From positions 32,001 through 96,000 of the IMG/VR virus record IMGVR_UViG_3300045988_171725: DNA of 64,000 nucleotides, one strand, 5' to 3'. The notes below the pieces were generated by a model, which made no database searches, was not told where the DNA came from, and saw only the letters and a program-made list of their open reading frames with translations. This stretch comes from a virus. Below are positions 226 through 60,205 of the stretch, in pieces; positions within the stretch are counted from its first letter, which is position 1; every line of letters begins with the position of its first letter. The position numbers and the translations under genes are program-made.

Positions 226-272
226 TTACCAATCTTTTATAATATTTTGTTTTTTTTTAGAAGGAGCTAAAA

Positions 273-1461: not shown

Positions 1462-1474
1462 TAAGGAGTAAAAG

Positions 1475-2341
1475 ATGATAAAACAAGTAAAAAAGGAAGT
1501 TGAAGAAGAAAATATAATAGACAGCGTGTTATCGTCTGAAACGAATGAAACCATAGATCCTACCGAAGGGTTGTCGGAAGAAGATTTAGCAAATAGGCGA
1601 GAAGTTTTGTCGATATTTCATTATGACCCATTTGAAAGAGAATGTTTATCAGATCGTAAAAAAATGTATAGAGATGTTACCATAATGGTCACACCAGATC
1701 TCTCAACTGATTTACCAAAACAAAGAGGATGTATTGATTTGGTTCGAAGTTATTTGAGAGCCGATAAAATTTCGGTAGCAATTCAAGAGCTCACGAAAGA
1801 TGCGGATACGATGATAAATAATGATAAAAAATTAAAAACCTTGCAGGATTTTCAAAAGACAACGAGCGACATAATCCAAAAAAACTTAAAAGATTTTGGA
1901 TTTAGTGAGCGTTATTCGTTAGCGAAAAGTAAGGGTGTCGGAACACTTTCTTATATAATGCGTGAAAGCGAGGAAGTCGACCGCGATGACGAGAAAATAA
2001 ACATTTACGACGTTGAAACAAGCAAAAGTATGCAGTTGGCAAGCGATATAAGCGCCGAATCGTTTTTTAAACAAATCGCGTTAAATGCGGGTGATTATAA
2101 GGATATCGTAACGAAACAGAAAAAGTTAATCAAAGAATTGACGGACGAAAACAAAAAACTTAAAGAAGAAAATCGGCTTATTTACGAACAGATAACCAAA
2201 GAAGAACTTTTGAAAGAACTTGCAAAGAAGCTCGAAGGGAAGGGTTTGGGGCGTAGAGAAATACAAGATATGGTTCTCGCAGAAATTCATTACGATGATA
2301 ATGAAATAAAAGAGATGAAGAAGCGAGGTAAAAATAAATGA
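1475..2341 (+). CDS. Hypothetical protein, possibly the small terminase subunit (by position only)
   Basis: SD AAGGAG precedes ATG 1475. The stop overlaps the terL start (ATGA). The protein is 288 aa, acidic and coiled-coil-rich. No motif was recognised. Confidence 0.35.
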   Translation: MIKQVKKEVEEENIIDSVLSSETNETIDPTEGLSEEDLANRREVLSIFHYDPFERECLSDRKKMYRDVTIMVTPDLSTDLPKQRGCIDLVRSYLRADKISVAIQELTKDADTMINNDKKLKTLQDFQKTTSDIIQKNLKDFGFSERYSLAKSKGVGTLSYIMRESEEVDRDDEKINIYDVETSKSMQLASDISAESFFKQIALNAGDYKDIVTKQKKLIKELTDENKKLKEENRLIYEQITKEELLKELAKKLEGKGLGRREIQDMVLAEIHYDDNEIKEMKKRGKNK

Positions 2342-4242: not shown

Positions 4243-4255
4243 AAGGAAATAAAAG

Positions 4256-4672
4256 ATGATTGGAAAATTAGTAGTAGATTACGAAGAAGTAAGTTTGGGA
4301 GATTTGTTGGAGTTTTTAATTGATAAAGGTATAGAGTGTTGTGTTGATGGGGATAATATTTATACATATTTAGAAAATTACAAAGGGGTTCGGGAAAACT
4401 CTATAATAGTGAATAAGAAGAAAATACAAAATTATTTCTTCAAAGAATTAACCTCACCGCCGACTCGCACTCCGACAAATTATGTGCAAACTTGGCTTTT
4501 AGAGAAATTCAACGAACAAGAACGTCTTCGCTTCGAGGAACAACATCAAGCCGAATTAAAAAAGGCACAGGAGAATATCCAGAAGGCGATGGAAGAGTAT
4601 AAACAGTTATACACAAAATACGTAAATCAACAAAACAAGGAGGCGCAGTCCGATGGCGGATCAAACAACTAA
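4256..4672 (+). CDS. Hypothetical protein
   Basis: 138-aa ORF with an upstream purine-rich SD, packed between terL and the portal gene (20-nt overlap with the portal start). Confidence 0.5.
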   Translation: MIGKLVVDYEEVSLGDLLEFLIDKGIECCVDGDNIYTYLENYKGVRENSIIVNKKKIQNYFFKELTSPPTRTPTNYVQTWLLEKFNEQERLRFEEQHQAELKKAQENIQKAMEEYKQLYTKYVNQQNKEAQSDGGSNN

Positions 4673-6602: not shown

Positions 6603-6606
6603 TTCA

Positions 6607-6798
6607 ATGGGAGAAAAATGTAATCATCGAATTAAATCGAAAAACACGACCTTGCACTTACTTGGTCGGTTATTTATGACGCACCCGAATGTCCGTCACG
6701 CCGTTTGTATGATTTGTGGAAAAGAGTTCAAGTTTGTCGAAGATGAAAATGGCGAACTTAAACCCTTTAAGAAGAACTGTGAGGAGGCAGAAAAATGA
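6607..6798 (+). CDS. Small zinc-ribbon-like protein
   Basis: 63 aa. SD GGGGAGGA precedes the start. It has Cys/His pairs (CNH...H...CMICGKEF). The stop overlaps the next start. Confidence 0.45.
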   Translation: MGEKCNHRIKSKNTTLHLLGRLFMTHPNVRHAVCMICGKEFKFVEDENGELKPFKKNCEEAEK

Positions 6799-7301
6799 AG
6801 ATTTCAGAAGCTTGTTACGAGCAATTGAACAATCTTATCAAAAAGAGTTTCGATTGCAATGCTCAAGCGGATAACTTCGCGTATAACATCGATTACACGC
6901 GCTATCCGAACATCGCAAATCTTTATCATCATGCGTTTGCCCACAAATTTCCTCAGCTTGCGGACGTCATAAGTGACCTTATGATACAGTTAAACGCAAG
7001 ACCAGTTAGAAAGGCAGTAAACGAGTATAAATCGGAATACCTCAGCCTTTATGACTTATTTGTCGATAATGACCGAATGATGGAGGAGTATAGACAAGAG
7101 GTGCGTAAAACTATCGATATCGCAGATCTTAACGACGATTATGAAGTTAGAATCGCGATGGAAGATTTTTTACTTAAACTTTTGCCTTATGTAAAACAGT
7201 CGGATATCTGGCGCACGAAGAGTGAGCAATATAAGGACGATCCGTCGCAATTTGATGTGCATTTTGCAGAATTAACTACGCTTATCCCACACACATTATA
7301 A
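6795..7301 (+). CDS. Hypothetical protein (helical)
   Basis: 168 aa, SD GAGGAGG, translationally coupled to the upstream ORF. Confidence 0.5.
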   Translation: MKISEACYEQLNNLIKKSFDCNAQADNFAYNIDYTRYPNIANLYHHAFAHKFPQLADVISDLMIQLNARPVRKAVNEYKSEYLSLYDLFVDNDRMMEEYRQEVRKTIDIADLNDDYEVRIAMEDFLLKLLPYVKQSDIWRTKSEQYKDDPSQFDVHFAELTTLIPHTL

Positions 7302-7336
7302 AATTAATTAACTTATAAAAAGGGGACTTTTAACAT

Positions 7337-35911: not shown

Positions 35912-38900
35912 ATGGATTTTAATAAAAACATAGGTGATATAGTTTATCATAAAAATTTTGGAAAGGGAAAAGTTACTAAAATTGACAGAGATGGTGACAG
36001 TTTGTCGATTGAGGTTTCTTTTGAAGAAGCTGGAAAACGTAAATCTTCAGGATTAGGTGTTATACCAAAAACTGCGCAATTTAGAGGCGTTGATTTTCAA
36101 TCTTTTTTTTCAGATACAAAAGCCAAAACAAAATCTTTATCGGGAGAAATAAGTAAAAATCGTGTAGTTGATACAACGTCTTATAAAGGTTATAGTTTTG
36201 AAAAATTACCAGAAAGTGATTTAAAGGCAATTCAGGAAGCCGTGAGAACTGGCGTTATAAAAGGCGTAGAAGATTTAAAAAAAATGTTACCAGCGGGCAG
36301 AACTATACCTTTGGAATATTTAAAATTATTAGAGGGTAAAAGCCCGACTGGCGAAAGATTACATGAGTATCAGGAAAGTGGCAAAACCGCAGAATTATAT
36401 AAAGATATTTTTAAGGGTATAAAAACAATAAGTATAACGCAGGGTAGTAAAATTCTTTTTGGTGATGATTATGCGGACGAGAATCAACTTAATAAATATC
36501 AAGAAGAAATCAACAAAAAAATTGCCGAAGTTAATAAAAAAATAGAAAGTGCTGATATAAAAACAAGAGCGATTTTAAATGATCGAAAAGCAGAGTTAGA
36601 AGAATCTAATAGAGAGTTACAGCGGCAAAGAAAACAAGCAAAAGATCAATATTCTGCTAAAGGTGGCACAGTCTTTCATAGCTTTGTCGAGATGTTGGCA
36701 CTTAATAAACTCCCGAAACTTAAAGAGGCTCTTTATTCTGGGGATAAAGAGCTCGCAGAGAATTTAATCAGAAATTACTTTTCAAAAGGTGCCACCGCCC
36801 AAACTTTAATAAAAGATAGCTCGACTAATTTTTCGGAATCGGATTCTGAAATTTTAGATGAATTTTTAAGTAAAATTAAAGATTTTGTTAATGTTGGTGG
36901 CGGAAGCGGCAGCTTCGCAACTGGTTTACAAAATTATGTAAACTTTTTAAAAGATAATAACATCACTTTAACCGATGCTGTTGAAAAAAGTATTGGCTTT
37001 GTCACGAACATCAATGATGAGTTGGTTAAATTTGTCGGAACGGTAGATGCGCTGTTCAGCGGATATCTTTTAGATCTAAAAACTGGTTCTATGCACCCAA
37101 ATGCAATTGCTTGGCAAGTTAATATGGGCAATTTCATACAGACAATGCTTGGCGGAGAGCCTGCGAAACATTTAGGGGCTTTCAACCCTGGCATGTATGG
37201 TAAAAGGGCAGGATATTTACCAGTTGAACAAATACCGTTGGAAACAATGAAAAAACTTATTGTTCAGGCGGCTATGGGAGAAAGAACCGACATTGATTTA
37301 ACCAAGTATGTAAAAGGAAGCGTTAGCACAGGCGTTGTAAAAAGAAGAGGCGAAGAGAAACAAGCTACCTTTATTAATAGTAAAGAAATGTATACTGGTG
37401 GTTACGGAGCAGAAAAACCAGAGTTACAAAAAGACATAGACAAACTAAATCGCGAAGCTAAAGAATTAGTCGAAAGCATAAAAACACTAAAAGGCGACGA
37501 TCTTGAACATATTTTAAATCAGATATATAGCACTAAAGATTATTCGCAAGGCGGAATTGAAAGTAATAAGTTTTATCGTCATGGATATTTCTGGGATCTC
37601 GTTCGCAGTATGTTGCCGTATGATATTTCTACTGTTTTAAATTATGCGATGAACGAGGGTGCAGCAATCCCTGCTACTAAGGGCGTTGGAACAAAAACAT
37701 ATAGAATAGAACAAGGCGAAGACGAACCGATTGCTGAAATAGATGTTCCAACTGTTTTAGGTATAAGTTTAAAGCAGTGGGCAAAATTGGCCAACATACT
37801 GTCTGAACTTCCTGATGGCGCAAATAAGGTGAAAAGACTTGCCGAATTGTTTGAAAAAGAATTCAAAAGTTTTAGTGTAGATGAACAAAGAAAAGTATTA
37901 TCCTCGTTCGAAACATTAATGACTCGAGAAGAAAATTTTAATCCAGAATATATTAAATTAAAAAAGCAGCAGGAATTATTGCGTGCAAAAATTCAAAAGC
38001 CTGAATCCTTTGGTGATGTAAATGTAGAAGAACTTCAGAAGGAATTAGATAAAACAAATGAAATTGTTTCTGAAATGGAAAAGTCTGGCGAATTGAATTT
38101 TTATCAAAATTTTGAAACCGCTTGGACAGACGTTGCCGATGAAATATCATGGAATAACCGCGAACTTCTGCAAGAGAGTATGACGGATTTTAAATCTGTG
38201 AAAATAGCAAGTGAAGATGCGAGACGTGGCGATAGGGAATATATGCCAGATGTTTTCGACTTAGAAACCGATCAAGATGGGCAACGTTATTATTCTGCGA
38301 GTGAATTCGAGACAGACCCAATTAAAAGCGCGACAATGACGGCGAACAGATTAGGACGAATTTTAGATTATTCTGCAAGAATTGATAAAGCGATAGAGCC
38401 GATGGCGCAAGAAATGGGAGTTTCGGTGGTTGATTTGGCAAAAACATTATTGCGAGATTTTGCCGAACAGACTGGAAGTTCCGATTCGTTTAATCGTTAT
38501 ATTAGAAGTAAAGAGTTGGCGGAAGACTTTAAAAAGCAATTCCCAAGTTTCGAAGGCAAAATCACAAAAGATGTAAGTAATTGGATTTATGACCGTTTAG
38601 ATTCCACTATCAAAGAAGAGCGCGAAGCTTTACTTGGAGTGACTGAAAGTCAAGAAGCGGGCGAAGTCACAACTTATAAAATCGGACCAAGCGGGGAGAT
38701 GTTAGATAAACATGCAACAAAGCCTTATGCGTTATTGCAAAATATATTAGGTAGAAGACTTTATTCTACTCTTTATAAATCTACAGATTCTATTCCGATA
38801 GAAGTGCTCGATGATTTAATTAAAGGTAAATCTTTAGAGTTGACGGAAAGAGTGGGGGCGGATTTGCCAGCCTCGTCAGATCACTCGAAAGAAGCCGTAA

Positions 38901-41499
38901 AAAAACGCGAAGCGCAAATAAGAAAAATAGATGAAGAGGCTGAAGAGAGAGAGAAAAGTTGGGTTGAGCAGTTTTTAAATTACGACGAACTCTTACCCGA
39001 AGCTCAAGAGCTTTTACAAAACTATATCAACACTTATAAAGAATATAAGGCAGCCGAAAAAGAACTATCCTTTTATGGTGGCGAAAACACACCAGAACAA
39101 AAATTCGAGGAATCTGATTGGAGTTATAAAGAAAGGTTAAAAGATTGGGAAAAGGTAAAAAGAAACTTCGATGAAAAAAAGAAGCAGATGGAAGAGGTTA
39201 ATGAAAACATAAAAAAGACGTTCCCATCTGGTAGAGTCGAGGGTTATAGTTCTGAAAAAATGTCGGAATTCTTAAAAAGGCGCGCAGAAGAAGGCATTGA
39301 GCAACAAAGACAAAAAAATATCGGATATGCTGCATTGTATTCTTATAGGTTCTCTGATAAAAAGAAGGCCGAACTTACACCCGAAGAAATTAATGAATAT
39401 TTGGATTACTATTCTGAACAATTTGGAATGACCACCGATGAGTTGTTGAATCTTTATAGACAAGAAAATGTTTATATGGGATTCAACGACTTTTTAAAGA
39501 AAATTGCTCAAGGACAAGATAAACGCCTGGTTTATTTTTCACCAAAAAAAATTAAAGCAGCAACAATAAAAGGCGCAGCCGATGGTGTTACTCGGGGTGT
39601 TACTAATACGGTAGAAAATATAGATCAGAAAAGCGTTGAAGAGAATGTTGCTAAAGCCGTATCGGATTCCATAAATATTGGCGAGGTTGAACCCAAAGAA
39701 GCAAGGAAGATATTACGAGATCCTGAGACCAACACACCAATAAATTCTGACGGAACGATAAACGAAGAACAGTGGTTAAAAGAACTAGATGAGAGCTTAC
39801 AGCGTTATCCAGTAGAACTTGAAAATGAATATTTTAAAAGGTTATTCAAAGATTCGCCTGATGATTATGTCCGTTTTGAAAAAGAGGTTAAAAGAACGAA
39901 GAAAGATGGAAGAAGAAACAGAACAGATCTGCGTAAATTTTTCAAGAGTGGAAATTGTGGCGACTTTGACTACAAAGATCTTCAACACGATCTCTATAAC
40001 ATAGAAATGCGAGAGGAACTTCCAGACTATTTAAAAACAAAGGAAGAGATATCCGAAGAAGAACATGGTGTCGTAATCGAAGGTGAAAATAAGGATACAC
40101 AAAAAGAGCTCATTCAAACAACAAAAGAAGAAGTTCAAGTTAAAAAACAAGGAATCGAACAAGAAAAACAAATCCAAGAAGTTCTCGATGACAAAACAAA
40201 GGAAACCAAGAAAAATGTTGATGTCGTTGAAGAAACTGGACGAGTTGAAAAACAGAACCTTGAATTAGAAAAGCAAGTACAAGAAGCAAAAAAAAAGAAA
40301 GTTACTGCAGAAAAAGATGTCAACACCTCTTTGTCGTCCAAAACTTCGATGATACCCGATAATATTTTAAAGGTGCAAGCGACAAGTGCTGACATTTCAG
40401 ATTTATCTAGAACTAAAGCAACTTCGATTACAACTGATTACGAAGGTCACACAATTGGCAAAACTTATAAATATCTTAATGATAAGGTTTTTGCTGATTA
40501 TGGTTCTGGTGGTCTTCAGGCGTGGATCGAGAATGCTAAACAGATTGGTATTGATGCAGCTAAAGCCGAATTGATAGGGATTTTGACTAAAGTTCCATCG
40601 TATAAGAAATCATCTGGCGGTTTGAGTAAAGCTGGAAGAACTGCGTTTGATGAAATAATGACCGATGCTTTTGGCGCTTCATATCAACCGCAACAAGGAC
40701 TTGGAGCCATATTATCCGAAGTCCAAGGTATTCATAAAGATACGTCTTCGATAGATGCGAAGATGGATTATTTGTCTGGCGGCGGAGGTGGCGCCCCATC
40801 TAATAAAATGGAAGTTTCATCTGACGGTGGTGCTGGAGGCGGAGATGAAGGTGGTAAAAAACCACCGAAATCTGGCGGTAGAAAAGGCAAGAGCGATGAA
40901 GAGAAGGCACAAGCGGATACTGAAAAACGGCAGAAACAAGATATAAGGGAATATCAACAGTATATTAACAGAGTTATAAGCCTTGAATCTCAGATTGATA
41001 AGCTTCAAAGGCAAGCAACATTAAGCGGCGGTAAACACAAAGATGCTATTTATGGAACAATTGACGCGCTTAATGAAGAGCTTGGGGATCTCAATCGTAA
41101 TAACGACGCGCTCAAACAAAGGGTTGCGACCGAACAAGCAGCAACAAAAGAATCGATCGACGCAACAGCAGCTCTTAGGAAACAATCAAATGCGCAAAAG
41201 AATCTTGTAAGCGTAAAAGGCGCGACCTCTATCTGGGATATGATGGCGAACGATATTCGCCGTGCGACCATGCGTGTTGCAGACTTCGGAATTGCTGCGA
41301 AGATTTTGAACAAGATCCCGCAGGATATACAGAAGGTAATCCAGTATACGAAAGAATTGGACGCGGCGATGACGAATATTCGTGTCGTCACGGGTGCTAC
41401 GGCGGAAGAGGCTCAAACGCTCGCACAAGGATATACACAACTTGCAAAAGAATTGGGGATAACCACTGTCGAAGTTGCTAATTCGGCAAACGAGTGGGT
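35912..41499 (+). CDS. Tape measure protein, exon 1
   Basis: SD GGAGGT precedes ATG 35912. It is long and K/E-rich, with coiled-coil character. The last ~100 codons begin the conserved tape-measure core (...MTNIRVVTGATAEEAQTLAQGYTQLAKELGITTVEVANSANEWV). The exon end is set by P1 pairing (see findings). Confidence 0.75.
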
Positions 41500-42673
41500 T
41501 AACAAATGTCTGGCTCACTATAAACTCCTTTAATTGCTGGAACCCCCTTAGAGCCATATAACTACAACATAACGATGAAATAGGCGTAAGTGTGATAGTT
41601 AAAAATATATGGATTGGGAAATCAGCAGCCAAACCTCGAACAGAGGAAGGTTCAACGAATATGTTCCACGAGTGTGGATAATGGGGAGCTCTACATAGAG
41701 AAATCTATGCGAAAGATATATTCTGAACTTCTGAGGAAACTCAGAGAAAATTCTATAAAAGGAGGTGAAATATTTGTGATAATAGAAAGTGAAGTTAAAA
41801 TGGTTATAAATCAATATAATTTTGATTATTATAAAAATCTTGGTTACGATATTCAAAAATGTGGACAACGAATTTTTGTAAAAGTTTCTGATTTACCAAA
41901 AACATCTGGGACAAAAATCCATACGATATGTGAATATTGTGGAGAAATAGTAGAAAAATCATACCGAAGGTATATAGAATCTATCGAATGTGGGAAAAAC
42001 TGTTGTTCAAAATGTTTGAAATACAAAATTCCTGAAAATGCTTTAGAAAAATACGGATGTCGTTCTACTTTAAGAATTCCAGAAATTCATGAATCGGTAA
42101 CTAAAAATAATCTTAAGAAGTATGGTTGTGAAAACCCTCTTGAATCAGCAGAAATTAGGGCTAAAGGTGTTCAGACTATGCAGAGTCGTTATGGTTGTAG
42201 TTATACCCTTCAAAGTGATGAATTACGTGAAAAGTGTAATCGGACATTATATGAAAATGGGAACGATATAACTGCGACAAGCAGACAACAAAGATATTTG
42301 TGTGATTTATACAAAGGAGAATTGAATTATCCTATTTGGATTTATCACATAGACATTTTGTTGTCGGACAACATATGTTGCGAATATGATGGAAGCGGTC
42401 ACGATCTTAGTGTTAAATTAGGTAATGAAACAAGAGAAAACTTTATTAGAAAAGAAAATAAAAGAATAACCTTTTTAACAAACCACAATTATAAGTTATT
42501 TAAAATACTTTCTAACACAGATATTTTGCCTAGTGATGAGATACTTTTAAACATAAAGAAACGGGCTTTTGAAATATTAAAAGTCCGAAATTATATGTAT
42601 TATGAGTACAATTTAGACACAAATATAGAATCTTTTAAATGATAAACTAAATTTAAAAGTAACACAATTACAG
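41500..42673 (+). mobile_element. Group I intron 1 (ribozyme core 5' of its ORF)
   Basis: P1 pairs exon AGUGGGU (41493-41499) with GCUCACU (41513-41519), with a U-G pair at the splice site. P/Q/R/S-like elements are ATTGCTGGAA (41533-42), AAATCAGCAGCC (41619-30), GTTCAACGAATAT (41650-62) and AAGATATATTCTGAAC (41713-28). The last nucleotide is G (42673). Confidence 0.7.
41776..42642 (+). CDS. Intron-encoded homing-endonuclease-like protein (zinc ribbon + KYG repeats + PD-(D/E)XK-like core)
   Basis: SD AAGGAGGTG precedes GTG 41776 (alternative ATG 41800); the track start at 41614 would translate the ribozyme core. Motifs: CEYCGE...CCSKC; repeats EKYGCRSTL, KKYGCENPL and SRYGCSYTL; core HIDILLSDNICCEYDGSGHD. 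Confidence 0.7.
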   Translation: MIIESEVKMVINQYNFDYYKNLGYDIQKCGQRIFVKVSDLPKTSGTKIHTICEYCGEIVEKSYRRYIESIECGKNCCSKCLKYKIPENALEKYGCRSTLRIPEIHESVTKNNLKKYGCENPLESAEIRAKGVQTMQSRYGCSYTLQSDELREKCNRTLYENGNDITATSRQQRYLCDLYKGELNYPIWIYHIDILLSDNICCEYDGSGHDLSVKLGNETRENFIRKENKRITFLTNHNYKLFKILSNTDILPSDEILLNIKKRAFEILKVRNYMYYEYNLDTNIESFK

Positions 42674-43250
42674 ACAAGGTTACGCAGGGGAAGAAGCCAA
42701 TCAATTGATTGTCGCTTCCTCGAAACTCGCTAAACTCGGTATGATTTCGACCACTGAGGCAACTAAAGATTTGACGAGCGCGATAAAAGGCTTTAAACTT
42801 TCGACAGAAGACGCGATGTCGGTTGTCGATAAATTGACAAAAATAGACCAAGTGGCTGCAATTTCCGCAGGAAATTTAGCGGAAGGTCTCGCGCGAGTCT
42901 CCACTACCGCTCAACAAGCAGGGCTTTCGCTCGACGAAACCGCCGCAATGGTAACTACGATTACCGAAGTTACGCAGCGTGACGCAAGCACGGCGGGTGA
43001 GGCGCTCAGAACTCTTATTTCGAGATACTCTAACGTTAAAGCGGGCGTATTCACGGATATGAGCGATAGCGCCGAAGAGACTTCGGGTAATATTAACGAT
43101 ATCGAAAAAGTATTGGGTAAGTTAGGGATTAGAATTCGTACTTCTGGAACTGAAATGAGAAGTATCGAAGATGTCCTTGACGAATTGGCTGAAAAGTGGG
43201 ATACACTTGATGATGTAAGTCGTAATGCAGTTGCGAGTGCTTTTGCTGGT
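42674..43250 (+). CDS. Tape measure protein, exon 2
   Basis: It carries the conserved core QGYAGEEANQLIVASSKLAKLGMISTTEATKDLTSAIKGFKL...STAGEALRTLISRYSNVK...AVASAFAG. There is no SD or ATG of its own. Confidence 0.8.
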
Positions 43251-44688
43251 AGGATGACGTATGCCAGAAATTATGGAAACATAATTTGTTAAGCACTATA
43301 AATAAATAACAAGGAAGATTGCTATATCGGTGAAGTTCTGGGGACAGATAATACCGAGGAAAGATTAAATATTAATAGTGAATAAGTAAATAACAAGGAG
43401 GTGATTTTCATGAAATGGGAGCAGTGGCAGATAGATTATCTTAAAGAAAATTGGGATAAATATTTAGATAAAGATTTGATGAAATATTTGGGCGTTAGCC
43501 CAGATTGTTTCTATGCTAAAAAGCGAGAATTAGGGTGCCTCCGATTCAAATGGACAGAGGAAAAGATAGAATTGTTAAAGAAGTATTATCCGATCGCTTC
43601 TTGGGAAGAGCTATTTCAAATTTTAGGTTGTAATAAAAGATCTTCGATAACTTCTATGGCTCACTTAAATGGTATAAGCCGAGATGTTTATAATAACAAC
43701 AAATTATCAAACTCCGACAAAGAATTTGTCAAAAACAACCACATGAATATGTCTGTTCATGAAATGTCTGACGTTATTGGTAAAAGAGCTGAATATATAT
43801 CAAACTATGCACGTAATAATCATATAAGAGTTTATTTTGGGCACGAGATAAGACCGTGGGACGAAGAATTATTCATTGAATTATATCCAAAATATACAAA
43901 CAAATATTTACATGAAAAATATTTTCCGTATTTAAGTAGGGCACAATTGCGTTCGCAAGCTAAAAAATATGGATTGGTTAAAAATAAAGAGAAAAGTGTT
44001 AAATGGTTTGATAAAGAGCAACTTTTAGAAGATTTAGAAAAGGCTACAAGAGAGCTGGGAAGAGTCCCTTTGTTAATCGAGTTTCAATCGCTCGGCTTAC
44101 CAACTGAAGCGACATACAGAAGATATTTTGGGTCTGTAACGAAAGCATTTGAGCTTATAGGAATAAAAAGACCATGCTATGTTCATGGTCAATGCCATAA
44201 GTTAATGGTATATAGAGATAAAAATGATAATTTTTGTCTATCTATGTCGGAAGTAATTATAAGTAACATTCTAATAGATTTCGGCATAACATTTGAAAAA
44301 GAAGTCCCTTATAAAAATTTTGTTGACGACGAGGATATTGGCGAAAAGATTAGCGATTGGAAGATTGGTAATAAAATAATCGAATATTTTGGAATGGTAG
44401 ATTATAAAGATTATAATGATGGTATGAATTTAAAAATCGAAATTTGCAAAAGACACAATATTTCATTATTAGCATTATATCCTGAAGATCAAAAAGATAT
44501 CGATAAGATGAAACAAAAGATAAAAGAATTTATTAATATTTAAAATCCGTAGAGACTATACGCAGTCAACCGTATAAGGTTAAGATATAGTCCGACCTGC
44601 ACGTATAATCCAATTAAAAAGAAGGTGCAGAAATAGCCAGAAATGGTTATTCGCCTGTATTATTACAGGTATGAAAAGTAACAAAAAG
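43251..44688 (+). mobile_element. Group I intron 2
   Basis: P1 pairs exon CUGGU (43246-50) with GCCAG (43263-67), with a U-G pair at the splice site. The S element AAGATATAGTCC (44582-93) matches the classical consensus 12/12. P7 pairs GACTATA (44554-60) with TATAGTC (44586-92). The last nucleotide is G (44688). Confidence 0.8.
43410..44543 (+). CDS. Intron-encoded homing-endonuclease-like protein (Myb/HTH-like repeats, HE-associated repeat, PD-(D/E)XK-like C-terminus)
   Basis: SD AAGGAGGTG precedes ATG 43410. The segment LLEDLEKATRELGRVPLLIEFQSLGLPTEATYRRYFGSVTKAFELIGI resembles the 'homing endonuclease associated repeat'. The C-terminus reads SEVIISNILIDFGITFEKE...DWKIGNKIIEYFG. Confidence 0.7.
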   Translation: MKWEQWQIDYLKENWDKYLDKDLMKYLGVSPDCFYAKKRELGCLRFKWTEEKIELLKKYYPIASWEELFQILGCNKRSSITSMAHLNGISRDVYNNNKLSNSDKEFVKNNHMNMSVHEMSDVIGKRAEYISNYARNNHIRVYFGHEIRPWDEELFIELYPKYTNKYLHEKYFPYLSRAQLRSQAKKYGLVKNKEKSVKWFDKEQLLEDLEKATRELGRVPLLIEFQSLGLPTEATYRRYFGSVTKAFELIGIKRPCYVHGQCHKLMVYRDKNDNFCLSMSEVIISNILIDFGITFEKEVPYKNFVDDEDIGEKISDWKIGNKIIEYFGMVDYKDYNDGMNLKIEICKRHNISLLALYPEDQKDIDKMKQKIKEFINI

Positions 44689-47421
44689 GTACGTCAACGT
44701 GAATCATTCAATATATTATTAAGCAACTGGGATCGTGTAAAGGAACTCACTGAAGAATCCGCTAACGCCGCAGGAACTGCCGACGAGAAGTATTCCGCTT
44801 ATATGGACTCCATGGAGGCGGCGACGAAGCGGCTTCAAAACGCGTGGGAAGGATTTACTCAATCGCTTGAAACAAGCACGGTAATGAAATTCCTCACGAA
44901 TTCAGTCGCGCTTTTGGTCGAGAATGCCGACAAACTCAAATATATAATAACCGTGTTTGCAGCTGCGAGTTCAGCAAAAATTTTTGACTTCTTTACCAGC
45001 AAAGGCGAAACAGGCGGGTTTAAAGGTTTAATCGCCAACATCCCGTTTATAGGCAGAGGAACGAAAACTAACAATATACTCGAAAGTATTGACAAAAAAG
45101 TCGGAGATATTCGAGGAGAGGTTCAGAAAGACAAAAGTGGAATTACTAAAAATGGTAGTCTAATTAGTAAGATTGGGCAATACGCAGCCGATAAACGTAC
45201 TGTAGGAAAAGATCGTAAGTTTATAAAAGATTATGAAAGTGGTAAATTCGATTCTGTAACTGATCCATCAATACAAAACGCTTATTATAAAAGATATTTG
45301 GGTGCCAAACAAAATTTATCATCAGATGATAACGAAGCGTTAAAGCGTTTGCTGGATGCGAAAGCTGCGAGAATGACCGCATTCGCTCAAACAGCAGCCG
45401 TCTCTGGAATTGCTACCTTAGCAACTCAATTAATGACAACGAAGCAAGTTTCTGGTTACGGCCAAACCGTTGAAGAAACTGGTGGTGACAAAGCGTTAAG
45501 AACTGGGCTTGCCACTGCTGGCTCAGTAGCTGGTGCGGCAACCGCCCTTATCCCCGTTATAGGACCTATGATAGCTCCAATCGTTTCTTCTTTGGGCTCA
45601 ATTGCTGGCGAAGGTTTGGCTGGATTAATAGCTAAATGGGCTCATAAAGACGAGCTTCAAATGAAGCAGCGTGTTGCCGAAGCCAAAGAAAATCTTTCTG
45701 CACTTGGCGATATAAAAACCGCTATCGAAAATAACGAGGATTTATTGAACAAAGACTCCTATACATCTAAAGATTACGAAAAGTTAAAATTATACGCCGA
45801 TTCTTTAAGAGAAAAATTCGCTAATAATGAAGATTTAGCTAAATTGTTTTTAGCCGATGTTCATAATCTTGATATTGGAACATTTACGACAATTGAAGAC
45901 GTTCTCTCTCAAATTACTAAGGGGAATGTCGATATCAATAAGCAACTTAAGAGGCAATTAGAGCTCACGACTGCCAGATTAACGGTAGAGAGCACCCTCG
46001 GCAAACAGGAAGAAGATAGAAAAAAAATACAAGAATACGTTGGTAAAAAATATGAATCGGATCGATCTGGTGTAAAAGCAAATTATTTATTTAAAGATCC
46101 AAATGATACATATTATACACGTAGTAATTTATTGGATTTTTATACAAGAGAAGATATTGCTAACCTTCTAAACACTGCAACTTATACTACTAATGGTGTT
46201 ACCTATCAAGGCAAAACATATAGTGGACCTGAAAAAATAGACTATATTCAAATAAAAGGAAACGATATAGAAGAAGTTCTTCAAAATGCGCAAAAAATCC
46301 TTGAAGAGGTAAGAAAAGGTTATTCTGAAACAAATAAAAATCTTGTATCTGAATGGGAAACAATTGTAAATAATTTATCAAAACAATTAGATAACCAGAA
46401 AAAATTAAATGCAAAACTTTTATCTACCCAAGTTGATTATGCTTATTTAACGTCCGATATTTTAAACACTAAGTCTCGTGATGAAATACGTGATCTTGGT
46501 ATGGAAGGCGTTGTTAAGATAATTCGTGACGAACTAATTTCGCAAGGTGTTGGTGTGGTTGATGAGAATGGAGTAATTCATCAAGACGCTTATGATGCCA
46601 TCGTTAAAAAAATACGTTCCGACTCGACTTTGAGTGATTATATAACGAAAGATATTCGCTCGATTGGGGATCTTATTTCTAAAGACGATATACAAGGTAT
46701 TGAATCGTTTGCAAGAGCGTTTGGTTTAACAACCGAGGCGGCGAAAGAGCTTGGTAAGCAGTTCGGATATTTAACTCAATCAATGGGTTTGATGAACGTT
46801 CAAGAGACGACGGAATACTATGAGAAACTGAGTACGGTATTTTCAAATTTAAGTTCGAATGTCGCTTTGACCGCAGGACAGATCAACAGTCTTTTGACGA
46901 CCTCTGAACTCAAAGATTTGCTTCCGTATTTGATGAATCAAGACGACCCTGACGCTTTGATAAAGGAACTTTATAAGAGAATTTACGGCGGCGGGCAGGA
47001 TGTCCATATGGAGAACGCGCTTTATGACGCGACCATGGGAATGTCGACCGATAAATTCAGAGAATACTTGCAAAACAAAGGGTTAAAAGAATATGTTGCT
47101 GAAATCGACAAAGGCGGGTATACCACCTTATCTCAAATTAGAGATGCAGTTAAAGAATTTGATGAGACAGACCCGAGACGCCAAGAGTTTTTGGAATATC
47201 TTGAAACGATAAATTATACTTACTCCAAAGACTTAACAGCTTTAGAGAAGCCGTCTAAGTATATTAAATCTCAACTCGAAGAGCAAATAAATAATCTCCA
47301 AGAGCAAAAAGATGCTTTGTCTCAAATTAATGACGAGAGAGAAAAAGAACTCAATCTAATTAAAGCGAAACAAGCGCTCGAAGACGCTCGGAAAGAAAAG
47401 AGAAGGGTTTATAGACAGGGT
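44689..47421 (+). CDS. Tape measure protein, exon 3
   Basis: It starts VRQRESFNILLSNWDRVKELTEESANAAGTADEKYSAYMDSMEAATKRLQNAWE, continuing the core from exon 2. It contains a hydrophobic Gly/Ala segment (TAAVSGIATLA...GPMIAPIVSSLGSIAGEGLAGLI) and long coiled coil. Confidence 0.8.
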
Positions 47422-48660
47422 AAACAAATATGCCCTTAAGTAACTATATCGGTTAAAACCTAGAAGTAGGTAAGACCGAGGTAAGATAAATTTTAAAATG
47501 TTAATATGCAATAAAATATAAATAAATTAAAAAAGGAGGTGATGACATGGAAAATAATATTAAAGAAGATTTGATAGCGTTAACCAACGAACAGGCAAAG
47601 AAGATTAATGCTGAAATTATTGAAAGATTTACGGGGAAAGACGGTAAGGCAAAGTTAAAAATACGCTCTTTATCATATCCCGAAAAAGGAGTAAGGGTCG
47701 TTGATCGATATAATTTCTTGCACTCCACTGCCCAATATAGATATTTTAACGCCGTGACTTGTAAAAATGATTTATTGAGACATGAAGAAATAACATCTAG
47801 AATTGATATAATTGGAGATTATATCAACACTGCGACAAAAATTTTATGCAAATGTAAAATTTGTAGCAATGAATGGATGGTAACTCCAAACAAATTATTA
47901 CAAGGTCGTGGATGCCCTAAGTGTGCTTCACAAAAAGCACATCGGGCTTACTCTAAATCACATGAAGAATTTATAAATGAATTAAAAAACGTCAACCCTT
48001 CTATCATGATACTTGATGAATATTATAATAATCGCACTAAAATAAGATACAAGTGTAATATTTGTAATAAAGTATCTATGTCTACTCCTTGTAAATTATT
48101 AAACGGGGAGAGCGGGTGCCATTTTTGTAAAAGCTCGATCGGTGAACAGAAGATATTCTGTTTTTTATTTGCCCACAAAGTACCATTTGAGAGAGAAAAA
48201 TATTTTGAAGATTGTAAAGATAAAGGGAAATTACCTTTTGACTTTTATTTATCTGATTATAATATTTGTATTGAATTTCAAGGTGAACAACATTTCCGTC
48301 CAGTAGACTTTTCATATACTCCAACTGAGGAATCGAAAAATAAAGCCGTTGAAAAATTTAAAGGTATTCAGAAGCGTGATAAAATAAAAGCAGAATATTG
48401 TAAACAGAATGGAATACGTCTTTTAATTATTGATTATAAACAAATAAAAAATATAGAAAGCATATTAACAAAAGAATTAAATTTATCAACCGTAACGACT
48501 GCAGGATCTTTGTGGTAACATAAAGATTGAAGTTACTTCAATATGTTTTAGACATATTGTAATATACAGTCTGAACTCGTAATATAACGAAATGAAATAC
48601 GAGAGTAAGGATTAACGTCCTTGCCGCCACATTTATTGTGGTCATAAAAGTAACAGATTG
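47422..48660 (+). mobile_element. Group I intron 3
   Basis: P1 pairs exon AGGGU (47417-21) with GCCCU (47432-36), with a U-G pair at the splice site. It shares CTATATCGGT...ACCGAGG and the 3' motif AAAAGTAACA with intron 2. An S-like element AATATACAGTCTGAAC lies at 48561-76. The last nucleotide is G (48660). Confidence 0.7.
47547..48518 (+). CDS. Intron-encoded homing-endonuclease-like protein (two zinc ribbons + PD-(D/E)XK-like core)
   Basis: SD AAGGAGGTG precedes ATG 47547. Motifs: CKCKIC...CPKC and YKCNIC...CHFC; core LPFDFYLSDYNICIEFQGEQHF...KRDKIK. Confidence 0.75.
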   Translation: MENNIKEDLIALTNEQAKKINAEIIERFTGKDGKAKLKIRSLSYPEKGVRVVDRYNFLHSTAQYRYFNAVTCKNDLLRHEEITSRIDIIGDYINTATKILCKCKICSNEWMVTPNKLLQGRGCPKCASQKAHRAYSKSHEEFINELKNVNPSIMILDEYYNNRTKIRYKCNICNKVSMSTPCKLLNGESGCHFCKSSIGEQKIFCFLFAHKVPFEREKYFEDCKDKGKLPFDFYLSDYNICIEFQGEQHFRPVDFSYTPTEESKNKAVEKFKGIQKRDKIKAEYCKQNGIRLLIIDYKQIKNIESILTKELNLSTVTTAGSLW

Positions 48661-49638
48661 ATTGGCTTCGTTATGGAAAGCAATGAGGAAGCAATTGCCG
48701 AAGCGCAAAAAAATCTCGAAAACTTAAATACTCAAAAACGCCAAGAAAATCTTCAGACGCAGATCGACACGCTTCAGATGCAGAAAGACATTATCGAAGC
48801 TCTTCCAAATCAGGCTCAACTTGAACAAACCAAAAAGATTTGGGAATTGTGGGCAGCGGATAAGGGAACGAAAGGAAGTCTTGCTTCCGTAACCGAAGGC
48901 GTAACGATGTTGGCGGATGCTTATACAAATGCCACAAATCGGATGAATATGCGTGCTAAAACAGAAGGGGTTCTAAATACACCTGATGAAAAGAGCAGTA
49001 TGCAGACATCTGATGAAAATACTAACCCCGTTATCACCCTTAGTGAAACTCAAATAGAATATACCAAAGCCTTAGTTTCTAACGTGGATGATATTAGAAA
49101 TATCTTATTAGGGAAACATACTAAAAACTTCCAAAATATGTTGGATTTCGTGAACAAAAACAACATGTTACAAGGCGATTATGCACGGTGGGGAGAAATG
49201 TTCAGAGCTGCTGGTATATTAAACGAATGGAATTCTTTGTCTGACAAAGAGAAAGAAGCTATTAGAAGCCAAGCAAATACGAGAGCGGGTGGAGACATTT
49301 CCTTCCAAGGCGGTAAAGCTCTTATCAACGAACTTGGAACCGAAGCGGTCATCACACCTGGCGGCACGCTCACCGCGCTTCCTTCGAAGACGGGTATCGT
49401 CCCTGCGGACATAACCCGAAACGTTTGGGCGCTCGGGGAAGTTGCTCCGACGTTGGTCGCACAGCTCGGTTCGCTTACGCAAAAGACGCTTTCTGGCAAC
49501 GCTGGAAACACGACCTACGAAGAGGGTCAATACTTCGACAACTTTACGATGAACGTTTACCCCGCAAAAGGCGACGACTTGAGCAAGATCCTGGAGCAAG
49601 CACGTGCACAAATGCGGCTTACGCGTCATAATAATTAA
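48661..49638 (+). CDS. Tape measure protein, exon 4 (C-terminal part)
   Basis: It begins IGFVMESNEEAIAEAQ..., with no SD of its own. The C-terminal pattern GGKALINELGTEAVITPGGTLTALPSKTGIVPADIT is typical of tape-measure C-termini as I recall them. Confidence 0.75.
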   Translation: MGFVMESNEEAIAEAQKNLENLNTQKRQENLQTQIDTLQMQKDIIEALPNQAQLEQTKKIWELWAADKGTKGSLASVTEGVTMLADAYTNATNRMNMRAKTEGVLNTPDEKSSMQTSDENTNPVITLSETQIEYTKALVSNVDDIRNILLGKHTKNFQNMLDFVNKNNMLQGDYARWGEMFRAAGILNEWNSLSDKEKEAIRSQANTRAGGDISFQGGKALINELGTEAVITPGGTLTALPSKTGIVPADITRNVWALGEVAPTLVAQLGSLTQKTLSGNAGNTTYEEGQYFDNFTMNVYPAKGDDLSKILEQARAQMRLTRHNN

Positions 49639-49728
49639 CTTGGATTAAATAAAAGGGTAATTTTATTATACGAAAAACGGTCCAACGCGGGTTCGCCCTT
49701 TCCCGCGCGACCAAAACAAGGAGGAATT

Positions 49729-50544
49729 ATGCTATATTTAGATTACGCGAAACCTCTCGCAGACGGTAAATACATTCTCAGCTTCTTCGCTGACAGTGCG
49801 GCTGACTTAGAGAGTATTTCGCACGGACAAAAATTTGTAACGAAAAACGGGACTGATTACGGCGTTCCGCAGGCTGGAAGCACGGTAATCGTAACGTCCC
49901 CGAATTCTGGCAAAACGACTTACGTTATGGACGCGGAAGGCGTTTGGGTAGTCACGGAAGACATCTCGTATTCGGCGGTTGTGGCAAACCCGAGCGACGC
50001 GGCGACGGCGAAATTGGAGAAATTAAAGGTAAATGACACGACTTATGCGAACTGGACTGAAAGCGAGATAAAAGCGTTGGCAGGGAAAGGGGAAGATGGG
50101 GTTGGTGTTACTTCGTTTGAAACTGTCTCGTCTACCGTTGTTGGGGACAATACTAATACTACGGTTCGCGCTCATTACTCGAACAATACCACCGATGAAT
50201 TTGTTGTAACGGCAAAAAACGGAATATCAAAGTCACTTTACTTTCACAAAATTTACATTAGCGACGGTTGGGGGGATAATATAGTTAAAGCGTGTTTTAT
50301 AAATCATAGTGGTAATGAAGTTAGTAAAATTTCGGAAATTGACGCCATTAGTAATATATTATTTAATATTAGATTTCAGCCAGATAATTCAGCGAATACA
50401 GAGTATATAGGTAATTACCTTGATGTCGAAAATGACAAATTTTCAATTGGGTATTTTTTAAATTATCCATTTAGACTCCCTGTGACCAATAAAAAATTCG
50501 CTTTAGGTATTGGCTCAATTAGTGATGAGGTGACTGCCCTCTAA
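49729..50544 (+). CDS. Tail-tip protein with an N-terminal domain paralogous to fibre 19143-20342
   Basis: 271 aa, [32 protein letters not shown]...FVTKNGTDYGVPQAGSTVIVTSP parallels [21 protein letters not shown]...[23 protein letters not shown]. Confidence 0.5.
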   Translation: MLYLDYAKPLADGKYILSFFADSAADLESISHGQKFVTKNGTDYGVPQAGSTVIVTSPNSGKTTYVMDAEGVWVVTEDISYSAVVANPSDAATAKLEKLKVNDTTYANWTESEIKALAGKGEDGVGVTSFETVSSTVVGDNTNTTVRAHYSNNTTDEFVVTAKNGISKSLYFHKIYISDGWGDNIVKACFINHSGNEVSKISEIDAISNILFNIRFQPDNSANTEYIGNYLDVENDKFSIGYFLNYPFRLPVTNKKFALGIGSISDEVTAL

Positions 50545-50735
50545 TGTTAACTTTATTTTTATCAACTTTATTCGAAATTTAAGATTACTAAATGATATCT
50601 AAATATATTTAAAAACGGTTTTATCGCGTTTCCGTAAAAAAAACGCGTTACCATTACTTTGGGTGTGGCGGGTTGAGAAAACCTCCCGCCCGTTATACTC
50701 AAATATTAAAAAAATAAAAAAGAGGAGGAAAAATT

Positions 50736-53700
50736 ATGGCTATTTATAAACCGAGCAATTGCACACCGTTTTTGACGTGCCTGGATTTGACAAAAGCGCA
50801 GGATATAACTTGTGAGCTTAACACGTCCAACGAATTAGTTACGGGGTATAAAATTAAGATATTAGACAGTAACAATGACGTGATTTTCGAAGGGGCAAAG
50901 TTTGATCCGATAAATCCCGTTGGTTACGATAACAGCGGCTTGAACGGTTCGACGCTTGTGCTGCCTTTGATCGTCGAAGGGAAGGCGATTAACAATAACA
51001 CGATCGGCTATCAAAACGGGGGATATAACGTAAACGACCCGACTGGCACCAAATTCGATGCGACGCGTTTTTCTAACGGCTATATCAATCAACCGTATAA
51101 GTGGGAGATCGTCCTCGAACAAGGAAACACGACAGGCGTTAAAGCAGATAAATTTTATGATATGACTATCACACAAGGAAAAGTTCTCGGTTCGACGAGA
51201 AACCGCATTCAGAGTTATTTATCCGATAACATATATAAGGATTATTTCATTCAGTTAAACAATACTTCGAAGAGAGTGTTGATAAATAGCTATGATCATA
51301 CATACGGGTATTTATACCCGCAGGAAAACAAGTTTACCGATGAAGAGGTTGAAGCGGCGACTTTTTTCCAGATATACAAATTCAGCAACGACCCCGACGT
51401 GATTGCGGCAGGATCGCAAGTTGCATACGCCATCAGTCAATCGATGAACGATGTTGCAATTGGGAGAAAGAAGAGCACGGTGGCATGGGGTAGTAATTTG
51501 GTTTATCCGTATTATTTCGAGCAGGTTTTTGAAGGGTTGTCCCGTTCTTACACGGCGCAAAACGATATTCCAAATTCCGCGTTCGATTCTGAAATGAGCG
51601 GGTTTCTTGTTACTGGAACGAACGTTATGGTTAAAGGAGAAACAGACGCAAACGCTTTTAACGGAATTTTCACATTAAATTCGGTCTCTGAAAAGGAACG
51701 CGACGTCGAAGTTAATGGCGAGACAAAGACACTATACGATCTTACGCTTAAGTGGCTTAGAAGTACGCCTGGTGATACGTGGGCGAATTTAACTAACGCG
51801 GTGTTTTATGTTCAAAACGGAGCCGACCACGGTACAAGGTGGCAGGTAAATACCGACACGCAAACAGTTGGGACAATTAACCAGACGCCCGTTATTTTTA
51901 TCCGCGAGAAACCCGTGGAGATATATACTGACGCAAGCAAAGGGTACAGTTCCGACAAAACAAAAGGGCAAATTTTTAAAAATACAAACAGACAAGTTTA
52001 TATACGTCCTTTTATTGGAATAGAATCTGGAATGCGGTTTAGTTATTTAAAGAAAGGTGAAATTGCTTATAAAAATATAGATGATTTCACAATAGACACA
52101 GAGATGTGGCAATTGAGTGGGAATATCGGTGAAAAATTAAAACCAGATGAAACCCAATATAAAATTTCGTCTTATTTTAAGGGGAGCGATGAAAATCCGT
52201 TTTACGCTTACGCCGAACCAACGGTCTCAATATATTATGATGGAAATCTTTTACCGTCAGATTTACTTAAAAGAATGATTGTAAGCAGAAGAACTGCGAC
52301 TTTTCAGGGCGTTTTTGAACAAATTAATAATAAAACATGGATAAATTATCAATGGTTTATTAATGATTTGTCAGATGGGACGACCGAGCAATCGGATAAA
52401 TTTTACAGTGGTGATTTATCATACACGTTTCAGGGACTCCAAGATAAGCACATTTATCAAGTCGTGTTGGTTGTCGAAGATGAATTTGGCACAAGTCATA
52501 AAACTTATGGCAATATTGAAATAGAAATAGATTTTATTACTGGCACAACCGATTTGACGGTAGAATTGGATTGCCTTACTCAGTCTTATATAATAGACTT
52601 CAATAAGTTAGGTATCGTAATTCCTGATCCTAGTAGCCAAACGCTCAAATATCGTGTTTATAATTCAACAAATACAGGTAAAGAGAATTATACGGTTAAA
52701 GAAGCGGATGAACCCGTTTCAAATTATGAATATTTTAATGTTGAAAATTCATATGATTACGGATATACGATTGATTACCCTGAATCTCAATCGGGAAGAT
52801 ATTTATCTTTATCGGATATAAAAGATGTAAACAAAATGGAGGGGCGTGATTCTTTAATGAAATATGATAAACTTCAAATCATTGGAGAAGAAACAATTGC
52901 CTCTATCCCTTCCCCAACTGGAGATTCATGCACTATGAATTCACAACATAGATTGGGCGCAGGTTTTAATGGAGATATCATAAAATATGAAATAGACGTA
53001 GACGATTCGTTATTTGGTACTGCTAAAGCAATTATAAAAGTATATCTGCCTCCTGTTACGAGAATGGATTCAAACGGAGAAATTGTGGTTTATACTGATG
53101 ACAGTCTAACTTCGTATAGTCAATACGAGGTAAATAGTACCGATGTAATCGGAAGAAAAGATTACACAGTTATAAAAGCTCCGAATTCCGAGGAGTTATT
53201 CTTCGTTAAAGATATCGGCTCCATAGCAAATCGATATAGTATAATAGCCTTATATACTAAAAAATATTCGGAAAATGACGAAATATTACTTGCTTCGAAG
53301 ATTTTAAACTGGGATGAAGAACGTGGAGATGTTAAGATTGTTTCTGCTTGGGTGCCTCAAAATGAAGCAGCTAACGATAGTTATGACTATTTGGATACTG
53401 ATGCAGTTTATGATGTTCTCCCTGAAAATTCAAATTATCGCCATATTAGAGGTGAAGGGGCCTTGAATAGTAAAGGAAAAATCGGTTATGTTTTCAGCGA
53501 AAAAAAAGATAAAGAATATTCTTATTTTAACGATAAAAAAAGAGTTGTTGTAACGCAGGCAAACGGCGAGAAAATAAACGTATTAAATGGTGAGTATAAT
53601 TATTGGAATGATGCTTATTACGATGAAAATGGAAAAAAGAAATATCATTATTGGTTTGATAAAGGAAGCGAGGAAGGTATTTATGAACAAACTAATATCA

Positions 53701-59743: not shown

Positions 59744-60205
59744 ATGGATTGGTTCGAAATATGTATTATTGTTTTGTGCGTAGTTGTTGTTTTGATGTAT
59801 CTCGTATGTACAGTTGGTTTTTGCATACTTACTCGGCGTTATAAAAAGTTTTACGAAACGACGGAAGAAGGCAGGAAACTTTATTGCGCCTTATACACGA
59901 AAGACCGTTTGGGCAGTAAACATGATTGGCTTGTAAATCGAATGAGTGAATTGCGAGATAAGATAGACGAATTTGAAACCTATTTCCCCGAAGAGAGTCA
60001 CGAAAAAGCGTCTATACATGAAATGAAAGCTCGATATAAAGAATACTCTGATGAACTTTATCGCACGAAAGAAGCTATGACTGATTGGGGTGAACGAATT
60101 AACAAAATGGTCGCGGCGTTGCCAAAAAAGTATAGCGATATCTTGGAGTACAACTGGGCAAATGCAAAAGTAGAAGTTAAGGAGGAGGAAAGCATATGTT
60201 GGTAA
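59744..60205 (+). CDS. Early membrane protein (one N-terminal TM helix)
   Basis: 153 aa, SD AGAGGTGG. The TM helix is ICIIVLCVVVVLMYLVCTVGFCIL. Confidence 0.5.
   Translation: MDWFEICIIVLCVVVVLMYLVCTVGFCILTRRYKKFYETTEEGRKLYCALYTKDRLGSKHDWLVNRMSELRDKIDEFETYFPEESHEKASIHEMKARYKEYSDELYRTKEAMTDWGERINKMVAALPKKYSDILEYNWANAKVEVKEEESICW

Follow-up and report, generated by a model that had tools for sequence, protein, structure and literature searches.

The window analysed here is a 64,000-nucleotide stretch of viral DNA (IMG/VR record IMGVR_UViG_3300045988_171725, positions 32,001 to 96,000), and all coordinates below count from its first base. It contains the gene for a phage tape measure protein (TMP) at 35912-49638 on the plus strand. 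Three inserts split this gene into four pieces, and each insert carries one open reading frame (ORF), at 41614-42642, 43401-44543 and 47547-48518; a Pfam PhageMin_Tail match lies in the TMP at 42705-43292. The present analysis concerns the third insert, 47422-48660, which a preliminary description of the bare sequence had named intron 3. With high confidence we assign it to the mobile group I introns of the IA type; its host is the TMP gene of an uncultured phage. The features at the level of the gene are the following:

44689-47421, plus strand: TMP exon 3, an in-frame ORF with a colinear continuation in intron-less homologues; U47421 is the 5' splice-site U.
47422-48660, plus strand: group I intron 3, 1,239 nt (3 x 413), ending in the terminal G (omega-G).
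47432-47436, plus strand: internal guide sequence GCCCU, the 3' strand of helix P1, from the sequence, the same P1 at the same site in Thomasclavelia phage TR-TP1, and the minimum free energy (MFE) fold.
47533-47541, plus strand: ribosome-binding site AAGGAGGUG, predicted from the sequence; the ATG at 47547 follows 7 nt after the end of its GGAGG.
47547-48518, plus strand: homing-endonuclease-like ORF of 323 aa in the P6a loop; zinc-ribbon repeats precede a Vsr-like nuclease domain.
48661-49638, plus strand: TMP exon 4, 325 aa plus stop.

When exon 3 is read on without splicing, its frame ends at a TAA (47437-39) six codons into intron 3. Joining 47421 to 48661 gives the in-frame junction RRVYRQG-IGFVMES (here and below the hyphen marks the splice junction), as had been proposed, and the predicted spliced junction peptide is ...VYRQGIGFVMESNEEAIAEAQK. 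A 353-aa peptide across this junction was used as the query of a homologue search. The uninterrupted homologues found were P0001 (92% identity, full coverage), P0003, P0005 and P0006, none of which has a gap at the junction, where they read ...KEK(R/K)RV(Y/F)R(A/S)GVG(F/W)... Excision restores the host gene: the spliced product is gap-free against all four proteins and against the DNA of the contig that encodes P0001 (L241). A tblastn search of GenBank phages with the spliced junction peptide gave no match. G48660 is the last base of the intron in all 17 aligned relatives (see below), which agrees with the zero-indel junction. The boundaries of the intron and the exon junction (GGU-AUU in the RNA) are supported by covariation of all core helices, by a covariance-model match and by colinear uninterrupted homologues. 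Exon 4, as read from the sequence, has neither a ribosome-binding site upstream nor a plausible start at the homologous position, and comparison with the homologues shows that this C-terminal exon is the best-conserved part of the TMP.

At the 5' splice site, AGGGU (47417-21) in the exon pairs with the internal guide sequence to form P1, with a 10-nt loop (AAACAAATAT, 47422-31) and the wobble pair U47421-G47432 at the splice site; all of these elements, described earlier by eye, are present. Because P1 is conserved and not covarying, its support consists of the sequence together with the junction homology. The loop had also been likened to the start of intron 1. The likeness is real (8/10 bases) but uninformative, since many relatives begin AAAC or AAAU.

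Two further alleles of the gene were found. The contig with P0001 represents the intron-less allele: its DNA is colinear with the spliced window, its empty-site sequence is ...TACCGCGCAGGT-GTCGGGTTC..., and a scan of the contig with the covariance model R1 (described below) gave no match. Between this contig and the window there are 16 mismatches in the interval from -21 to +27 nt around the junction (47400-47421, 48661-48687) and zero at -129 to -22 and at +28 to +56. Such a cluster is expected around a homing site and resembles a tract of co-conversion or an endonuclease target that has diverged; it may point to homing without proving such a history. A sister phage, present on two ENA contigs (L242 and L243), was compared with 41219-49700; it is 97.8% identical over 44689-49700 and has kept intron 3 with its ORF, and its TMP is continuous at the sites of intron 1 (ANSANEW-NRQGY) and intron 2 (ASAFAG-VRQRESF). 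These contigs are empty-site evidence for introns 1 and 2. Since L242 retains intron 3 and lacks the other two, the introns behave as separate units that are gained or lost independently.

The core of the intron was examined in an alignment (A1) of 17 sequences, consisting of intron 3, with its ORF cut out between the P6a strands, and 16 non-redundant relatives. Without guidance, RNAalifold recovered P3, P4, P5, P6, P6a, P7.1, P9 and P9.1, with compensatory changes in 37 of the 53 pairs. Once the P7 pseudoknot was included, standard pairs made up 97.5% of the pair positions counted over all sequences, versus 32-40% in controls in which the 3' partners had been slid by 1-3 columns. With P7, 38 of the 55 pairs have changed on both sides, and the observed values were reached in none of 500 shuffles. 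The ORF-deleted intron, in which P6a was closed by an artificial short loop, reproduced the same helices at an MFE of -81.2 kcal/mol, versus -45.1 +/- 4.1 for shuffles (z = -8.8). These results show a conserved group I architecture, with a U-G pair in P1, P3 to P9 in order, a pseudoknot of P3 and P7, a bulge in P7 next to an invariant G-C pair, and G as the last base. The elements of the intron core and of the 3' domain are:

47439-47445, plus strand: P3 5' strand AGUAACU, pairing with 48531-37; 5/7 pairs compensatory, 100% paired.
47446-47479, plus strand: joining segment J3/4 (AUA), P4 (47449-54/47474-79), A-rich J4/5 (47455-57) and P5 (47458-62/47467-71) with the loop GAAG; from covariation, and the motif is P4 in the RF00028 alignment of the relative L019.
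47480-47493, plus strand: P6 5' strand GGU (47480-82, with 48489-91) and P6a 5' strand GAUAAAUUU (47485-93, with 48479-87); both covary.
48479-48491, plus strand: P6a 3' strand AAAUUUAUC (48479-87) and P6 3' strand ACC (48489-91); from covariation.
48492-48501, plus strand: R element, J6/7 and the P7 5' strand; 6 pairs, 100% paired in the 17 sequences.
48505-48528, plus strand: P7.1 hairpin (48505-14/48519-28) with the GNRA tetraloop GUAA (48515-18); 9/10 pairs compensatory.
48531-48537, plus strand: P3 3' strand AGUUACU; from covariation, crossing P7 to form the P3/P7 pseudoknot.
48540-48558, plus strand: P8 hairpin (48540-47/48551-58); from the MFE fold, and a hairpin in 15/17 relatives folded singly.
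48559-48576, plus strand: S element, J8/7 (GUAAUAUA), the P7 3' strand (48567-72) and J7/9; from covariation and the RF00028 alignment.
48576-48641, plus strand: 3' peripheral domain of P9, P9.1 and P9.2; P9 and P9.1 covary, P9.2 is from the MFE fold.
48642-48660, plus strand: 3' tail with the family-invariant AAGUAACAG; from invariant columns of the alignment.

The preliminary description had been unable to place an R element or P7. Both are now located, at 48495-48501 within the last codons of the intron ORF, and they were missed by eye because the R element and the P7 5' strand lie within the 3' end of the ORF. P7 consists of GACUG (48497-501) paired with CAGUC (48567-71) and an outer pair A48495-U48572, with C48496 bulged. 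Two of its pairs covary, namely A48495-U48572 (A-U/G-C 10:7) and another (G-C/A-U 11:6), and the bulged C48496 adjoins the invariant pair G48497-C48571. In the textbook picture of the guanosine-binding site, as in the Tetrahymena intron, P7 has a bulge beside a conserved G-C pair, and the P7 of intron 3 fits this geometry as a putative site. The S-like AATATACAGTCTGAAC that had been seen by eye is present at 48561-76.

Two by-eye candidates, a P2 (CGGU...ACCG) and a hairpin (UUGAAG/CUUCAA), were discarded, as covariation shows these segments to be P4 and P3'. Intron 3 has no P2, and a single hairpin, P7.1, lies between P7 and P3'; the loop of P7.1 is GUAA or GCAA in nearly all relatives. Introns of the IA2 subgroup have two GUA-linked hairpins, P7.1 and P7.2, between P7 and P3' (PMC3428280). 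Because intron 3 has only one, we call it IA-type and give no subgroup.

The three 3' hairpins claimed for the intron also exist, as P9 (48576-81/48598-603), P9.1 (48605-12/48617-24) and P9.2 (48627-31/48637-41). Likewise, the terminal motif AAAAGTAACA is where it had been reported, at 48646-55, 5 bases before G48660, and again at 44674-83 in intron 2, 5 bases before G44688. In the aligned relatives AAG(T/C)AACAG is invariant (17/17). U48658 and U48659 could pair with A48575 and A48574 as a candidate P9.0; both pairs are possible in 13/17 sequences, two of which have compensatory changes, and we tentatively propose a P9.0 between J7/9 and the two bases before the terminal G. The 3' motif AGUAACA (48650-48656) matches the P3 5' strand AGUAACU (47439-47445) over six bases. 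A pairing of the conserved 3' AGUAAC with P3' was considered and rejected, because P3 varies among the relatives while the motif stays constant; the identity of the two strands is probably a coincidence.

The covariance model R1 was trained on the 16 relatives, using their 3' halves (P6' to P9.1), with the window left out. In the window it matches 48487-48628 over its full model length with 123.5 bits (E = 1e-28). Besides intron 2 (see below), a further match, at 59794-59890 (16.5 bits, E = 0.035), was dismissed as chance, being within the intact small ORF 59744-60205 and lacking the conserved P7 bases. A connection to the Rfam family Intron_gpI (RF00028) is given by distant relatives that have the same core without P7.1. 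On seven of these (L019, L060, L183, L187, L198, L209 and L237), RF00028 reaches its gathering threshold with 52-83 bits, and R1 in turn matches these same RF00028-positive introns with E values of 3e-12 to 9e-3. On L019, RF00028 assigns CUAUAUCGGUG to J3/4-P4, AAUACCGAGG to P4'-P6, GACUA to P7 and GAAGAUAUAGUC, also given as AUAUAGUC, to J8/7-P7'. These assignments are the same as those made for intron 3, and the elements common to intron 3 and RF00028 are J3/4-P4, P4'-P6, R (GACUR) and S (AUAYAGUC).

A megablast search of the region against GenBank phages gave no match. With sensitive blastn, similarity was limited to two Thomasclavelia phages, TR-TP1 and TR-TP2, in which the 3' 175 nt are 71% identical. 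A scan of public contigs for the core pattern returned at least 119 viral stretches and at least 120 genome stretches. The matches listed come from genes of phages and from genes for 23S rRNA and tRNA, apart from a few coding false positives. Many of the relatives are ORF-less, and a subset of the relatives has the R type of intron 3 (GACURCRGG) and its 3' domain. In all ORF-bearing relatives P6a is a perfect stem of 9-16 bp flanking the insert.

One contig (L020, IMGVR_UViG_3300045988_121181; minus strand, 705-1641) has three group I introns nearly back to back in one phage gene, two of which are matched by R1 (705-848 and 1438-1580) and one by RF00028 (1087-1394). In L187 (248-895) and other loci of the candidate phyla radiation (CPR)/Patescibacteria, 23S rRNA genes contain at least three RF00028-positive introns in a row, and several 23S rRNA introns of uncultured bacteria have the CTATATCGGT...ACCGAG core. 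In six Bacillus genomes of several species (L167, L188, L191, L207, L223 and L232), introns with the same core are found in the anticodon-loop region of a tRNA gene.

The ORF of intron 3 starts in the P6a loop and runs through P6a', P6', J6/7 and P7; its stop codon UAA (48516-18) lies within the GUAA tetraloop of P7.1. Pfam reports the zinc ribbons CapR and DUF4379, and the ORF matches PHROG 559, 9084 and 7140, which are annotated as HNH, homing or intron-encoded endonuclease. Homologues were found in 646 GenBank phage records (tblastn) and as 781 proteins in a large metagenome-derived collection, and D232, E243, Q248, H249, D278 and K281 are invariant in 32 homologues. The AlphaFold model has a predicted local distance difference test (pLDDT) value of 86.7, and its best neighbour in the Protein Data Bank (PDB) is E. 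coli Vsr (1cw0_A, probability 1.0). Vsr, which is related to the PD-(D/E)XK enzymes, is the best structural match to the C-terminal domain, and D232, E243, H249 and D278 are among the conserved residues of the ORF; Vsr, however, lacks N-terminal zinc-ribbon repeats, and no solved structure is detectably similar in sequence. From its peripheral loop position, ribosome-binding site, PHROG homology, Vsr-like fold and invariant residues, the ORF is predicted to be an intron-encoded homing endonuclease. A sigma-70-like promoter was looked for between the 5' splice site and the ORF start, and none was found. R1 gave no match at the loci of ORF homologues in phages of S. thermophilus, Staphylococcus and Bacillus, so the endonuclease family also occurs in other contexts.

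A number of results weigh against the interpretation of 47422-48660 as an active mobile group I intron. With Rfam cmscan, RF00028 gave no match in the window at the gathering threshold and none at E <= 10 on 38000-52000 or 48440-48700, for which the 1-kb ORF in a loop was one conceivable cause. The gathering threshold of this family is 50 bits, and an ORF-less close relative (L049) scores 13.2 bits. RF00028 likewise gave no match at gathering on the ORF-less members of the intron 3 subfamily, and because these fail as well, the negative result in the window carries no weight; it reflects the reach of the detector and not a property that defines group I introns. The preliminary description had named the lack of a computationally detectable group I core as grounds for giving up the intron; judged by Rfam alone this would have misfired, as the core is found by covariation and by R1. 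R1 gave no match on the T4-type td and nrdB introns (L245), and the link to biochemically proven introns is therefore indirect, via intermediate relatives and the architecture. The alignment of the P8 region is too ragged for column-wise counts, so that this hairpin was assessed by per-sequence folding only. P10 is weak, with 2-3 bp. The fold match of the ORF to Vsr is modest (Foldseek E = 2e-3, template modelling score 0.55 on the target). When its sequence was searched against the PDB, the ORF gave only a zinc-ribbon match and no solved homing endonuclease. Finally, both the splicing of intron 3 and the endonuclease activity are what we infer from these analyses.

One alternative is that the insert is a decayed group I intron that no longer self-splices, so that a host or phage factor would be needed or the TMP would be truncated. 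The weak P10, the inferred nature of the activity and the overlap of the ORF with the core speak in favour of decay, but all core helices are intact in the window copy, the family-invariant positions are all kept, the R1 score of 123.5 bits compares with 129.6 for the training member L001, and in L242 the intron is retained, 97.8% identical and with an equal R1 score. Loss of splicing should moreover be strongly selected against, since the C-terminal exon is the best-conserved part of the TMP. We thus regard decay as very improbable. Even less probable is a free-standing homing-endonuclease gene between separately translated tail genes, with the TMP split, the flanks mere spacer and no splicing: GenBank does annotate the homologous TR-TP1 locus as separate coding sequences, and ORF homologues do occur in Staphylococcus, Bacillus and S. 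thermophilus phages where R1 finds no such intron, but the flanks covary as a group I core, with P3, P6, P6a and P7 joining its two halves over the ORF, exon 4 lacks a ribosome-binding site and a plausible start, and the uninterrupted homologues run over the junction with zero indel.

The mobile group I intron favoured here had been described as a sister of intron 2. The two do belong to the same broad class, but the term is too strong, as the architecture differs and the ORFs are unrelated. Both of the 5' motifs said to be shared are present, with coordinates that were off by one: in intron 3 CTATATCGGT lies at 47444-53 and ACCGAGG at 47475-81. The window has exactly two copies of the combined pattern CTATATCGGT-N10-35-AAKACCGAG, one in intron 2 (43322-58) and one in intron 3 (47444-80), where none is expected (100 shuffles). 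Introns 2 and 3 share the J3/4-P4...P4'-P6 core, with 53/70 bases identical, and the AAAAGUAACA tail, and R1 matches intron 2 at 44544-44655 with 72.7 bits. In their 3' halves there is no significant plain-sequence similarity outside AAAAGTAACA. A P2 is present and a P7.1 absent in intron 2, and the reverse holds for intron 3. A pairwise comparison of the three intron ORFs revealed no significant similarity. Other phages harbour the closest relatives of intron 3; one such relative occupies the same TMP site in TR-TP1.

For intron 2, the start would be 43251 (the exon ends in GCUGGU at 43250), with P1 formed by CUGGU and GCCAG and a P2 hairpin at about 43269-88. R1 gives 9.9 bits at the 3' end of intron 1 (E = 1.5, not significant). 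Because the model fails on its 3' half, intron 1 is placed outside the intron 3 subfamily and is of another type than introns 2 and 3. A possible P1 of intron 1 pairs GUGGGU with GCUCAC, ending at U41499, and the intron carries the AAAAGUAACA motif (41490-41520, 42646-42674).

Group I introns in TMP genes are known. Tourasse and Kolsto (2008) described IA1 and IA2 introns at three TMP sites in prophages of the Bacillus cereus group (PMC2504315); related copies occur at different sites with re-adapted P1, and their presence is patchy among related phages (PMC2504315). By their description, these introns (TMP-IVS1, IVS2 and IVS3; PMC2504315) resemble those of the window in the TMP host gene, the use of up to three sites, the IA type and the variable presence. 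They differ in that the hosts are Bacillus, while the nearest isolate here is a Thomasclavelia phage, and in that several of them lack a complete endonuclease gene, whereas all three introns of the window have an intact ORF. Intron 3 is therefore a familiar kind of mobile element, and what is new is the different phage lineage.

A close known counterpart is the insert of TR-TP1 and TR-TP2 (PQ571309, PQ571310). It occupies the same TMP site, RVY..G-(V/I)G (TRVYEEG-VGW in TR-TP1), with the same P1 (AGGGU/GCCCU) and a matching architecture that shows compensatory changes in P3, P5, P6, P6a, P7.1 and P8. Its P6a ORF is homologous to that of intron 3, at 35% identity. The TR-TP1 ORF ends in J6/7, whereas that of intron 3 ends in the P7.1 loop, and the TMP exons are strongly diverged. 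In the TR-TP1 record (L001, locus 1-7318), the TMP is annotated as separate coding sequences, namely two "tape measure" pieces and one "hypothetical protein", interspersed with two "HNH endonucleases", and no intron is marked; intron 3 has its homologue in the second of the two inserts.

An ORF that starts in P6a and extends over P7 has precedents in the nrdF intron of B. thuringiensis (PMC2248736) and in the IA2 intron within the gene for DNA polymerase of cyanophage Pf-WMP3 (PMC3428280), both of which splice. Like intron 3, these introns have an ORF from the P6a loop over P6, P7 and P7.1, an own ribosome-binding site, a U-G pair marking the 5' splice site and G as the last base, and the Pf-WMP3 intron also lacks P2. 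Their ORFs are of the GIY-YIG or HNH type, whereas that of intron 3 combines zinc ribbons with a Vsr-like domain, and IA2 introns have both P7.1 and P7.2 where intron 3 has one hairpin.

On the model of such introns, the RNA of intron 3 would fold after transcription, and a free guanosine bound in P7 would attack after U47421. The freed exon end would then attack after G48660, joining ...RRVYRQG to IGFVMES... and restoring a TMP of about 3,291 aa. If splicing failed, translation would stop six codons into the intron, and the best-conserved C-terminal part of the TMP would be lost. The endonuclease, in turn, may cut intron-less TMP alleles at RVY..G-(V/I)G, so that repair would copy the intron into them (homing). 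Ribosomes on this ORF would open up the ribozyme core, because the ORF overlaps P6a', P6', P7 and half of P7.1.

A wider reading would place intron 3 in a distinct lineage of phage group I introns, characterised by the lack of P2 and a single GNRA-capped P7.1, missed by Rfam, recurrent in TMP genes of uncultured phages and swapping unrelated endonuclease genes in the P6a loop. The stop codon in the P7.1 tetraloop would then make ribosome passage and ribozyme folding mutually exclusive, a possible switch between endonuclease expression and TMP splicing. Taken as a whole, we consider this reading doubtful.

For the detection of such elements, the consequence is that a standard Rfam scan gives no warning here, as RF00028 stays below its threshold on intron 3 and on its ORF-less close relatives, while the core pattern CTATATCGGT...AAKACCGAG together with R1 recovers hundreds of such introns in viral and bacterial contigs. 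The intron-plus (L242) and intron-minus (L241) alleles could support homing experiments. Where gene callers report four fragments plus three "HNH endonucleases", the TMP should be annotated as one gene of about 3,291 codons, and the locus is a further instance of a phage structural gene in which several mobile introns are stacked. With the three introns removed, the exons of 5588, 577, 2733 and 978 nt add up to 3,291 codons, which is unusually long for a TMP and would imply a very long tail. Tail length is predicted from the length of the TMP, and joining the exons therefore changes the tail length that would be inferred for this phage.

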